In this document: one piece after another, positions 31,699 to 35,149 of the stretch
Position numbering within the stretch: the stretch's first letter is position 1
Layout: each line of letters opens with the position of its first letter
Assembly (NCBI GenBank): GCA_965223425.1
Contig: OZ245003.1
Span: 2,400,001-2,464,000 of the forward strand
DNA from: Nitrosopumilus sp.
GTDB lineage: Archaea; Thermoproteota; Nitrososphaeria; Nitrososphaerales; Nitrosopumilaceae
Length of the DNA stretch: 64,000 nt
Reading direction: 5' to 3'
Position numbers and translations under genes: made by a program
Notes under the pieces: generated by a model
Database searches by the model: none
What the model was told of the DNA's origin: nothing
What the model saw: the letters and a program-made list of their open reading frames with translations, nothing else

Positions 31699-33462
31699 TT
31701 AGTTGATCGGCTTGATGTAGCACCGTTTTTTCACATCCACAATCCCACCTGAAAGAATTCTAACAGATGGCAGAGCCAAGAATGGCAGGAACAGGGGAAC
31801 AAGATGGGGCCTAGCAAACCTGCATCCTGAATCTACAATAGCGTGGTTGATTTTTTTAAAGTTTGATGAAACCCTTTCAAACGAATCAGTTGAGACGATT
31901 CCTCCAAATTGCAAAGGCAGCGAGGCTAAAATTTTGCCGGATTTTACCACAGCAAGCCCCCCTTGATTTCGGATAAGATGGTTTGAAGCTAAGGCCATAT
32001 CAGAGTCATTTGAACCAATGACTATCATATCATTTTCATGAAAGCTCCAGGTGGAGGCAAACGCGCCAATATCGGCTCCAAAGTTTTCCAGAAATCCAAT
32101 GCTGTGTCTGGATGTCCCGTTAATTCTATCAAATGCTGCAACCTTCCAGACATCAGAATCTAAAGAGGCAGGGACATGGCCGTCCTTTGGATGCAGTTCA
32201 GCTGATCCGATTTTTGTAATTATCTCAGTCTGCATAAATATTGTATTTGCAAGAACGTCTTTCTTTCTTGATTTAACAAGAAAATCATTTTTTGAGAATT
32301 TTTTTAGTTTGACGGTTTTTTTAATCCAGGGCGGTATGGTTTTTTTCTTGAAGGGTACTACAAAACGTCCATTTGAAACCACGAGCTTTCCACCCACAAA
32401 GACTTTGCTTGGTTTGAATGATTTCAAGTCATTAAAAACCAGAATGTCTGCTAGTTTTCCAGGTGCTATACTGCCAAGATCTTTTCCCATGTTGTAATAG
32501 TCAAAACTGTTCTTAGATGCCATTGTAACTGCGTCTATAGGTTTGAGGCCAAGCTTGATTGATTCCCTGATGCAATGATCAATATGGCCAAATTTTTCAA
32601 TATCTAGCGGATCAATGCCATCTGAGCAAAACATCAGGCGGTTAAGATAAGTTCCGTGAGACAAAACACGGGGAATGATTTCCTTCAGGTCGCGCCTTAT
32701 CGAGCCTTCCCTAATCATTACCCACATTCCAAGACGCAGTCTTTCTAAGACCTGATCAAAATTAATCGGTTCGTGACAAGAGAGTATGCCTGATGAAACA
32801 TAGGCATTGAGTTTTTTTTCACTTATGCCTGCTGTATGCCCATTAATTATACAATCACACTCCAGCATTGCAGAGAGGGATTTCATTGTTTTGGGTTCAC
32901 GCAAGGTAACTCTAGTCCACGAAAAAACTTCCCCTAGGCCAAGAACGTGGGGGTGTTTTATTGCGGATTTTTCCTGCGATAGCGAGAGATGCTTGCTGTT
33001 GCTAAATTTTGCATCCACTGGAAGGCCTCCTGGAACTACCTGAAAAAGTCTTGCCGGTAGATCCTCTCCAAGTTTGAGGAATTCTTGAAAGCCCTTGTAA
33101 CCTGAAACGCTAACAATGTCAATCGGATCAGAAAAAAGAGAGGTGACGCCGCAAAGAAGTGCCTTTTTTACAAATTCAGACGGCAATACAAATTGGTCAA
33201 TGTGCAGGTGGGGATCTGCAAAACCGGGGCTTGCATATTTTCCGTTTATATCAATGACTTTGGTTTTTGGACCCATTGTATGCGCAGCATCCGGGCCAAC
33301 ATATGCAATCCTGTCATCAGTTATTGCAATCTGGGTTTTTGGAATAACTTCCTTGGTATATACTGACAACAAGTTACAGTTTTTCAAAACCAGATCAGCT
33401 TTTTTGTCACCCATTGCTACAGAATTCAAGGAAGAGATCGAATGCGCTAGACTCGAAGTCAC
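31699..33462 (-). CDS. ade: Adenine deaminase
   Basis: PGFADPHLHID, IREGS, FCSDG, GSIAPGKLAD and the C-terminal adenine deaminase domain. Confidence 0.88.
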   Translation of the reverse strand: MTSSLAHSISSLNSVAMGDKKADLVLKNCNLLSVYTKEVIPKTQIAITDDRIAYVGPDAAHTMGPKTKVIDINGKYASPGFADPHLHIDQFVLPSEFVKKALLCGVTSLFSDPIDIVSVSGYKGFQEFLKLGEDLPARLFQVVPGGLPVDAKFSNSKHLSLSQEKSAIKHPHVLGLGEVFSWTRVTLREPKTMKSLSAMLECDCIINGHTAGISEKKLNAYVSSGILSCHEPINFDQVLERLRLGMWVMIREGSIRRDLKEIIPRVLSHGTYLNRLMFCSDGIDPLDIEKFGHIDHCIRESIKLGLKPIDAVTMASKNSFDYYNMGKDLGSIAPGKLADILVFNDLKSFKPSKVFVGGKLVVSNGRFVVPFKKKTIPPWIKKTVKLKKFSKNDFLVKSRKKDVLANTIFMQTEIITKIGSAELHPKDGHVPASLDSDVWKVAAFDRINGTSRHSIGFLENFGADIGAFASTWSFHENDMIVIGSNDSDMALASNHLIRNQGGLAVVKSGKILASLPLQFGGIVSTDSFERVSSNFKKINHAIVDSGCRFARPHLVPLFLPFLALPSVRILSGGIVDVKKRCYIKPIN

Positions 33463-33494
33463 AGTTTTAATTAGATTTTGCGCCTATTATAGAT

Positions 33495-34822
33495 GGTTCT
33501 GTCAAGTTATAGGCACCTGAAAATTTTCAATTCAGGGAAGATCCATATTTTAGCTTTCGAAGATTACATAGAACCGAGGATAGGCGTACATAAATGCTCC
33601 AAAATCATAGAATATTTGTTGAAGGCAACAAAGTCAGTAGCACAAAAATATACACCAAACTCTGACCTAATGGATATGATGGTCACATTCACAGAAATGG
33701 TTAACCGTTGCATCAAGACAGGGTTAAAAGAAGACACACACAATATGAAAGGGTTATCATGTCTATGCTATCACGAATTGAGAGACTGACATTTTATCGT
33801 CATACAAACTAAATGCAATATCAAGGGCTGCTGGCATACTGGCAAACAGAAAACAGTCAATAAAACGTGGCATCAAGGTTAGATACCCAAAGGTAACAAA
33901 GCCGTTTATCACTAATTGTTATGGTATAAAACACAATGGTGCACTACTCACAATCCCATACAAGAGTAGAAATCCAATCAACGTCTTGTTAAACCCACAC
34001 ACCCAAAAAATCCTGTCGAATCCTGCCTTGACAGTACGCTCGTTTTCATTGACTGCCCTCAACATCAGTCTTTGTGTTTCCAAGGAAACTGAAAAGATAG
34101 AATGTACAAAGACAGTAGGAATCGATAGAAATTTGAGGAATGTTACATGTGGCAATGAGGGACAGGTAACATTTTACAAGACAAACAAACTGCTATCCAT
34201 AAAAGAGAACACCATGCACGCCAGAGCCGGATTCTACAGAAATGATCGCAGAAAGAAAGGCCAATTCTGGAAGATAAAACAGCGAAGAATGGCCAATAGA
34301 ACAAAACAATACATACACAGAATATCAAAAGATATTGTGGATAATGCCGTCAAAGAAAAGGCTGTAATCGTTCTAGAAAACCTAAAAGGAATTAGAAAAC
34401 TCTACAAAAAAGGAAATGGCCAAGGCAACAAGTATAGGCGCAGATTAAACGGATGGCAATTCTACGAGCTGCAACGCCAAATAGAATACAAAGCCCAATG
34501 GGTCGGGCTCCCACCAGTCGAATATGTAGACCCAAAAAACACGAGCAAGATGTGTCCAAGATGCGGAAAGAAACTCCAAGAGGACATGCAACACAGTCGT
34601 AAAATGTCGTGTAATAATTGCGGATTGTACATGGACAGAGACATTGTAGCTGCCATGAACATATCACGCAAACTGTCCCCTAGGTTTAGGGATAGTAGAG
34701 ATGACATAGGTGAAGCGCAGTCCGGTGTTTTTGAACCGGCGATGATGGAACCCTGCATACCGGTAATCCAGATAGTCGATATGTCAAAGTCGAGTGATAG
34801 GTGCCTATAACTTGACAGAACC
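33495..34822 (+). mobile_element. 1328-bp TIR-bounded non-autonomous element carrying tnpB only
   Basis: Perfect 24-bp TIRs GGTTCTGTCAAGTTATAGGCACCT (33495-33518; reverse complement at 34799-34822); 8-bp TSD TTATAGAT (33487-33494, 34823-34830). Confidence 0.93.
33616..34810 (+). pseudogene. tnpB: TnpB (RNA-guided RuvC endonuclease), one frameshift near 33787
   Basis: N-term ..KATKSVAQKY..CYHELRD continues in another frame as DILSSYKLNAISRAAG..; RuvC motifs GIDRN, VLENL, DRDIVAAMNI; Zn finger CPRC..CNNC. Confidence 0.9.
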
Positions 34823-34867
34823 TTATAGATTCAATGCTTAAATTACGGTTTGGAAGGTTTTGTTGGT

Positions 34868-35149
34868 ATGAACATTCCCAAGGTGATCAGAAAGTATTGT
34901 GCAAAATGTAAAACACATACCGAACAAAAGGTCTCCATCTACAAGGCTGGAAAAAGACGCGGTTCTGCCAGAGGCGAACGCCGACACGCAGAACGTAAAC
35001 GGGGATATGGCGGACAAAAATTCCCAAAACTGGCAAAACCGGCCAAAGTTACAAAGAAAGTCACTCCCATTATGACATGTACAGTATGTAAAAAGAAATA
35101 CAACAAACCAGGTATCAGAATTAAAAAGTTCGAGTTGGTGGCCGCATGA
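34868..35149 (+). CDS. rpl44e: 50S ribosomal protein L44e
   Basis: YCAKCKTHTEQKV...GYGGQKFP...AKVTKK..CTVC. Confidence 0.96.
   Translation: MNIPKVIRKYCAKCKTHTEQKVSIYKAGKRRGSARGERRHAERKRGYGGQKFPKLAKPAKVTKKVTPIMTCTVCKKKYNKPGIRIKKFELVAA

Follow-up and report, generated by a model that had tools for sequence, protein, structure and literature searches.

A tnpB element with IS6-like terminal inverted repeats in Nitrosopumilus sp. and its predicted guide RNA

A tnpB gene with no transposase gene beside it lies between an adenine deaminase-like gene (ade) and the gene for ribosomal protein L44e in Nitrosopumilus sp., and it raises the questions of which kind of element carries it, which enzyme moves that element, and what an RNA-guided nuclease contributes to its spread. 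The locus was analysed in a window of 64,000 nucleotides (contig OZ245003.1, positions 2,400,001 to 2,464,000). A sequence-only reading of this window had proposed that the gene travels between IS6-type terminal inverted repeats (TIRs) and is moved in trans, as a prokaryotic parallel to the capture of Fanzors; that interpretation was supported by the analysis below, with mobilisation and nuclease activity inferred from sequence comparison.

The element between ade and the L44e gene

The insertion occupies window positions 33495-34822 (1328 bp) and is bounded by a perfect pair of 24-bp TIRs with an IS6-like GG tip and cTGT motif, the left at 33495-33518 (forward strand) and the right at 34799-34822 (reverse strand). 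It is flanked by the 8-bp target-site duplication (TSD) TTATAGAT at 33487-33494 and 34823-34830 (both forward strand), just as had first been read. Its sole gene is a tnpB pseudogene of ~398 codons (33616-34810, forward strand), with a TTG start assigned by comparison with an intact sister copy; the frameshift already noticed proved to be a 2-bp deletion after 33786 relative to sister copies, leading to a stop at 33787-33789. The window copy keeps the RuvC D (GIDRN), E (VLENL) and D (DRD) motifs and both CxxC pairs of a C4 zinc finger, and was matched by guided_TnpB (NCBIfam NF040570) at 131.5 bits, against a cut-off of 100, and by PF07282. No tnpA is present in the element, and the tnpB stop (TAA, 34808-34810) lies inside the right TIR, as had also been claimed, together with the last arm of a predicted omegaRNA hairpin. 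The family as a whole has the RuvC D-E-D triad, C4 zinc finger and length (350-450 aa) that define TnpB, the window copy itself being frameshifted, and an AlphaFold model of the protein (pLDDT 87.6) had AsCas12f as its best fold match and also matched ISDra2 TnpB. A feature missed at first is an inverted TIR remnant of another TIR type (33555-33575, reverse strand), which together with the outer left TIR makes up an 81-bp MITE-like left end; this unit is deleted in the sister copy at G000:C1:1781136 (G000 denotes the host genome, C1 and C2 two of its contigs).

Both neighbouring genes lie outside the element, ade at 31699-33462 (reverse strand, PF13382) and the L44e gene at 34868-35149 (forward strand, PF00935). 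The short divergent intergenic region between them is nearly invariant among relatives and contains AT-rich stretches that we take to be TATA-like boxes, and the insertion may alter both promoters. The empty site that had been predicted here was recovered: 16 of 17 orthologous loci from same-genus genomes were empty, with a single TTATAGAT in 14 and TTATAGGT in two, and the remaining locus gave no match at the orthologous insertion site. Contigs of public run X1, possibly the source of the assembly, spanned the left junction of the window copy with the same depth as the flank, and those of X3, which comes from another study and has a depth of 2-3, spanned both junctions without differences; one further public run held the empty-site joint from a related strain, and the joint at 33538-33587, within the left end, was also present in three public runs. 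Because the genome holds 14 copies and contigs of public runs cross the junctions, the element is neither a chance arrangement nor a misassembly.

The 14 tnpB copies of the family on C1 bore out the expectation of further copies with different TSDs, which were all different: seven copies had an exact 8-bp TSD and one a TSD with one mismatch, two inverted copies had swapped TSDs, two had none and two had lost the left tip. No length other than 8 bp matched in the host copies (4-12 bp tested). A full ORF with D-E-D was found in 11 of the 14, and the window copy, as could not be told from the window, is among only three broken ones. The other two, at G000:C1:2292740-2293860 and 594880-596160, are interrupted by insertions encoding proteins of 350-370 aa, presumably transposases of IS630 type. 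The copies are mosaic along their length, which points to recombination between them, and the swapped TSDs of the inverted copies at G000:C1:1325308-1326598 and 1451399-1452689 imply a 125-kb inversion between the two, for which cointegrate formation or homologous recombination would each fit. Within one element, the two TIRs usually agree at every position over 24-26 bp (G000 copies and loci L044-L076 of genome G330), which suggests copying between the ends; TIR positions 9-24 vary between elements with near-identical tnpB, and the upstream arm of the last omegaRNA hairpin changes along with them. Contig C2 (123 kb; GC 46.9% versus 41.2% for C1) may be a plasmid, a virus or foreign; it contains no TIR of this family, and its three further tnpB matches are unrelated in the tree (two of the three tested).

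Beyond the host, near-full copies number at least 33 in G330 (OZ240211.1); they bear no fewer than five TIR types, and their TnpBs are mostly 80-90% identical to those of the host. A search of 301 genomes of the order found relatives of the TIR-tnpB family in 60 (E at most 1e-30), and others come from Bathyarchaeia records and metagenomes; viral contigs gave distant TnpB matches only (30-34%). Mini-elements of 340-655 bp that lack an ORF but retain the two TIRs and, with the final 250-400 bp of tnpB, the omegaRNA region were seen at G000:C1:1199933-1200276, L226:353-849, L227:321-698, L228:313-700, L245:488-865, L236:492-1146 and L080. Several begin their tnpB remnant near the same codon, and L227 and L245 represent one deletion at two sites; they are possibly omegaRNA-only MITEs that borrow both transposase and TnpB. 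At L036:1533-2914 (genome G017), a TIR pair of the same type surrounds a 337-codon ORF instead of tnpB, with what we take to be an HNH-like motif.

This distribution bears on whether the TIRs are incidental, that is, whether an ordinary IS605- or IS607-type tnpB element landed in an IS6 MITE, as the MITE-like left end of the window copy and the IS607-type character of the sister lineages might suggest. Closely homologous tnpB genes did not sit in IS605-type ends: the same TIR tip was found at the expected place in 135 of 151 relatives with enough flank, a set that includes a few outgroup loci, down to ~30% identity. Many copies carry different TSDs outside their TIRs, and the stop codon and omegaRNA hairpin inside the right TIR leave no room for a separate inner end. 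Moreover, neither a Y1 TnpA (PF01797) nor a serine recombinase TnpA (PF00239) was found in the host genome, which is 99.99% complete. Such nesting is therefore regarded as extremely improbable.

The transposase and the known carriers of TnpB

An IS6-type DDE transposase with the same type of end is present in trans in the host genome. PF13610 had eight matches there, two of them in complete elements with an intact D-D-E and GGTTCTGT ends, namely G000:C1:915423-918405, with an exact 8-bp TSD and a 344-aa ORF, and G000:C1:256390-260474, with a one-mismatch TSD. At G000:C1:793017, a decayed IS6-like transposase element has an end that is identical to the window TIR at 23 of 24 positions; the ends of the intact helper match that TIR at only 15 and 19 of 24. 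Across the order, 33 transposase-only elements with GGTTCTGT ends and exact 8-bp TSDs were collected (34 rows minus one nested duplicate). It is thus very probable, as judged from these shared ends and duplications, that the tnpB element is mobilised in trans by the resident IS6-like transposase. No autonomous form, with tnpB and an IS6-like transposase in one TIR pair, was present among the order loci inspected, and when the checked loci were searched by tblastn with the IS6-like transposase, no match lay closer than 1000 bp to tnpB and one lay ~1.5 kb downstream (L082).

The first proposal of an IS6-type helper acting in trans stood as far as IS6-like candidates exist, and its comparison with IS257 and IS1216 did not. 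The helper transposases have 335-344 aa and a zinc-binding region at the N-terminus; their scores of 111 and 122 bits fall short of the NCBIfam IS6 cut-off of 125, and their best plasmid matches are clostridial IS6/ISCpe7 transposases (28-29%). The family belongs to IS6 in the wide sense of ISfinder, which takes in ISCpe7 and IS6 MITEs, by its GG tip, cTGT motif and 8-bp TSD (as defined in the accessible text of PMC7986276) and by the PF13610 domain of the helper. It departs from IS6 members in having no transposase within the element, TIRs of 24-25 bp and a helper below the IS6 cut-off, and so falls outside IS6/IS26 in the strict sense, with its short H-HTH and DDE protein passing the IS6 model and its 14-bp TIR; Harmer and Hall (2019), in the accessible part of their review, exclude long and archaeal forms from IS6/IS26 (PMC6807381). 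The helper being a long zinc-finger protein, below the cut-off and ISCpe7-like, the term IS6-like is apt and IS26/IS257 family is not.

The IS6-like transposase elements (G000:C1:915423-918405; L159-L233) are 2-7 kb long and bear cargo, which in the G000 element includes a 475-codon ORF, presumably for a DNA methyltransferase (DPPF motif). Nine of the 33 control elements adjoin another TIR-like end, exactly 8 bp outside it, as if IS6-like elements inserted beside an existing end; such an arrangement was recorded at L160, L163, L168, L189, L200, L203, L218 and L221, and also at L029 and L035. At L004:2601-3206 (G000:C1 ~2029800-2030400), a perfect tandem repeat of ~30 copies of an 18-bp unit adjoins a broken IS6-like transposase gene.

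TnpB within TIR/DDE transposons is already published, so that the proposed parallel to Fanzor capture is real and has a precedent. According to the accessible text of Altae-Tran et al. (2023; PMC10691335), there are six DDE-associated TnpB branches (DDE-1 to DDE-6), defined by a DDE gene within 1000 bp, with inverted repeats and solo TnpBs moved in trans. Like these, the present family has TnpB between inverted terminal repeats, its 3' end near the transposon end, and solo copies that are very probably moved in trans; unlike these, it showed no IS6-like transposase within or immediately next to the TIRs at any tnpB locus checked. For DDE-5, the supplement of PMC10691335, as accessible, describes a TA motif that precedes the predicted transposon end by 8 bp, and this geometry is shared here, where 36 of 37 clean copies have TR (TA or TG) in that position. 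DDE-5 is mentioned in connection with plasmids and rearranged active sites, whereas the TIR-tnpB clade is chromosomal and archaeal with the usual D-E-D; the clade may nonetheless be identical with DDE-5. Plasmid TnpBs from Staphylococcus, Rhodothermus, Bacillus and Thermus (six regions) were considered as DDE-5 representatives and rejected, being of IS605 type or without a DDE neighbour. The accessible part of a 2026 review citing Altae-Tran et al. (2023) names ISL2, IS630 and IS1031, not IS6, as DDE partners, and the word tnpB is absent from both IS6 reviews. The link to IS6 is apparently unreported: a literature search that covered few subscription papers found no paper linking TnpB to IS6, and none on Nitrosopumilus, TnpB and insertion sequences together.

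The family is also distinct from IS200/IS605 elements (IS1341 group), given its TIRs and TSDs and the lack of PF01797 in the host genome, and from IS607, with its GG-terminated ends without TIR or TSD and its serine recombinase TnpA. With IS1341 solo tnpB genes and ISDra2 TnpB it shares tnpB as the sole gene, a guide (here predicted) from the right flank and a TAM (the target-adjacent motif; here predicted) 5' of the insertion point. As these are described in the sources at hand, however, their ends are hairpins without TIR or TSD and TnpA itself picks the TAM site, whereas the predicted TAM of the window family lies outside a variable 8-bp TSD. Thermoproteota IS607 TnpB elements are the nearest outgroups in the tree and have the same omegaRNA stem-loop and pseudoknot position; they end instead in AACGG or AACCC and adjoin a serine recombinase or an HTH remnant, with no TIR or TSD found. 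Like Fanzor1 and Fanzor2*, the family represents a TnpB relative captured by non-autonomous TIR/TSD elements. In Fanzors, as far as described in the sources at hand, the TAM includes the 5' TSD, the scaffold includes the 3' TSD, and there is no pseudoknot in Fanzor1; the window family, by contrast, has its TSD as the predicted seed and retains the pseudoknot. The capture of TnpB here is of independent origin from that of Fanzors.

The predicted guide RNA and the motif beside the duplication

A putative omegaRNA scaffold was predicted at 34672-34822 (forward strand; 5' boundary approximate), overlapping the tnpB tail and the right TIR. The single-sequence fold of this region was weak (z -1.6) and Rfam gave no meaningful match (a single one, E 4.3), the support coming from an alignment of 23 right ends, hand-picked from 46 non-G000 TIR-paired loci plus two G000 copies. 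The helices predicted in the window were kept in this alignment, with 87.9% of cells paired, against 30-41% in slid controls and with none of 500 shuffles reaching as much, a score favoured by the derivation of the structure from one row; both-side changes occurred in 30 of 46 pairs. A stem of at least five pairs closes a GGTTY loop in 54 of 55 elements, and in the window this loop (34683-34687) can pair with the terminal GAACC of the TIR (34818-34822), forming a predicted pseudoknot. The pair is almost invariant inside the clade, which leaves no covariation there; in outgroups its letters co-change, as CCGTTG/CAACGG at eight loci, CCGTTC/GAACGG at three and GGGTTC with an AACCC end at four (15 of 20 loci fit the pattern). 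Covariation thus points to a candidate omegaRNA with a pseudoknot, as in OMEGA nucleases, at the right end. All 47 copies from G000 and G330 have an intact right tip, and 37 of them an intact left tip, two left ends being of one origin; in control transposase-only elements, the right tip was found in 27 and the left in 26 of 33, in a search that allowed one mismatch.

Since the pseudoknot closes on the TIR tip, the scaffold most likely ends there and the guide would begin with the TSD. The predicted guide of the window copy (34823-34838, forward strand) would comprise the right TSD as seed and the adjoining flank, its 16 nt being set by analogy with ISDra2 (PMC13565253, accessible text), and intact copies could supply a TnpB that uses this omegaRNA. 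A guide that starts at the TSD requires the TAM to sit directly before the left TSD, at 33484-33486 of the window (forward strand), where the sequence is CTA, with TTR as the family consensus and TR as its core. Of 37 clean tnpB copies, 36 had TR in the position immediately before the TSD, and 26 had TTR; at other offsets (16 tested in all) TR reached at most 12 of 37, on the mirror side 6 of 36, and its genome background is 13% (13-18%). Transposase-only elements, with the same ends and the same 8-bp duplication, had no such motif and serve as a natural control: six of the 33 had TR on the 5' side, six on the 3' side and 11 on at least one of the two (Fisher p 7e-9 against tnpB copies, overstated because the copies are kin). 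The flank of the nine controls that adjoin another TIR end is fixed; without them, 5' TR was found in 6 of 24. Two genomes contribute 29 of the 37 clean copies, so that the counts are not independent; outside G000 and G330, 30 distinct TSD-bearing loci, some with permissive TSD calls, had TR in 20, T at -2 in 25 and TR on the mirror side in nine, and several distant members had TTT or TAT at the TAM position.

Flank preferences are common among transposases, and TnpB might be a passenger or have a generic role, the TR bias coming from the transposase acting on these ends; three of four TIR elements with neither gene did have TR on one side. Against this, near-perfect symmetric TIRs give no obvious cause for a one-sided motif oriented with tnpB, and in G330, among elements of one TIR type, TR accompanies three tnpB copies (L063, L070, L075) and neither 5' flank of the transposase elements L176 and L233. 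The conservation of the omegaRNA structure and the right tip also argues against a mere passenger, and this explanation appears distinctly unlikely. Guided cleavage with a TR/TTR TAM is probable, the TR motif and dN/dS being indirect signs of it. The predicted TAM and 16-nt guide match of the window copy fall on an intergenic stretch almost invariant in 16 relatives, which would suit homing. At filled left junctions, the TAM is followed by eight matching bases and then by one to three matches in the next eight (eight copies checked), and no TR-preceded match was found elsewhere in the genome for 12 G000 guides (8-nt seed with up to two mismatches). A 12-nt flank common to copy 1451399 and the end at 793017 was dropped, the sequences diverging at once beyond it.

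Spread and origin of the family

The reading that we favour, with moderate confidence, is a non-autonomous insertion sequence of ~1.3 kb, moved in trans, in which homing by TnpB acts as a filter on insertions. The resident long IS6-like DDE transposase would recognise the TIRs in trans and insert the element with an 8-bp duplication, a step with strong support in the sequences. The cargo would be TnpB and an omegaRNA that runs through the right TIR, its pseudoknot closing on the last five TIR bases, and the guide, from the predicted structure, would consist of the TSD and the right flank. TnpB would then cut the empty allele only where the duplicated 8-mer is immediately preceded by a TR/TTR TAM; the filled site, with the TAM and only an 8-nt match, presumably escapes cutting. 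As the transposase shows no preference for TAM sites, TAM-bearing insertions would be copied into empty alleles by break repair and persist, and the others would stay rare. Comparable ideas have been put forward in the accessible texts on IS607, as TAM filtering after promiscuous insertion (bioRxiv 2023.08.09.552727), and on IS605 on plasmids, as non-restorative homing (PMC13565253). The weak point of homing is that bacterial IS6 is described as replicative, leaving no empty donor site (PMC7986276, accessible text), so that restorative homing after excision does not obviously apply and the supply of empty alleles would have to rest on sister chromosomes or on hypothetical DNA exchange in this host. 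A rise of TR to near 100% from a background of 13-18% also needs a strong drive.

The nearly absolute, one-sided motif at a single offset (36 of 37) and its lack in transposase-only elements would also be expected if TnpB-omegaRNA docked on TAMs without guide matching and positioned the IS6-like transposase, giving insertion in a fixed orientation behind the TAM. Docking at insertion explains equally well why 17 of 19 TSD-less copies have kept TR, and TR precedes the left 8-mer in six of seven tnpB-deleted mini-elements. Recombination between copies, as seen in the mosaics and swapped TSDs, would however also explain TR in TSD-less copies, the element has no adaptor gene, and the catalytic residues are under purifying selection, which suits a nuclease: dN/dS was 0.31 within G000 subfamily B, 0.20 between subfamilies, 0.10 in G330 and 0.12 between genomes, and D-E-D was kept in 11 of 13 G000 and 29 of 30 G330 copies tested. 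Guide-directed choice of the site was rejected, the 16-mers of TSD plus flank (12 from G000, 30 from G330) being no more similar than shuffles (p 0.1-0.95); target sites thus lack the seed similarity that guide-directed targeting would leave. Docking of this kind is rather unlikely, and that TnpB-omegaRNA sets the DDE insertion site at integration, also for omegaRNA-only mini-elements, with the transposase in trans, is a shade more doubtful still. Alternatively, TnpB-omegaRNA might persist as an addiction or damage module, TR reflecting something besides cleavage of empty alleles; omegaRNA-only mini-elements exist, and a toxin-antitoxin-like mode has been proposed for OMEGA systems (PMC13565253, accessible text), but such a module predicts no TAM-like motif exactly 5' of a TSD that matches the guide, and we consider it highly improbable.

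The origin of the family was approached with a quick tree of 32 rows from one phylum, with an unsure root. In this phylogeny, which had been suggested as a check, the 16 IS6-ended rows fell together on one side of a branch (SH-aLRT 90), and their neighbours end in AACGG or AACCC; four of these adjoin a full IS607-type HTH-resolvase gene and three an HTH-only ORF, and no TIR pair or TSD was found at the IS607-type outgroup loci. Upstream of the outgroup tnpB genes L293, L303 and L304 lies a stand-alone HTH_17 ORF of 60-75 aa that resembles the N-terminus of IS607 TnpA without its catalytic domain. The simplest history, which we infer given the unsure root and sampling limited to the phylum, would be that TnpB was captured once, from an IS607-like element with a scaffold end already similar to the IS6 tip.

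On that history, the family would record a guide-RNA scaffold changing its carrier, with the pseudoknot letters switching from an IS607-type end to the tip of an IS6 TIR. In IS605, the target of the transposase is the TAM of TnpB by construction, so that an effect of TnpB on the placement of copies is inseparable there; here, the transposase-only elements make a role of TnpB as a homing drive for a possibly non-excising transposon directly testable. Should TnpB instead set the insertion site, a Cas12 ancestor would here be coupled to a transposase without TnsC. The family is also a source of dozens of intact 400-aa nucleases, encoded by mesophile-like archaea and predicted to use a relaxed TR/TTR TAM.
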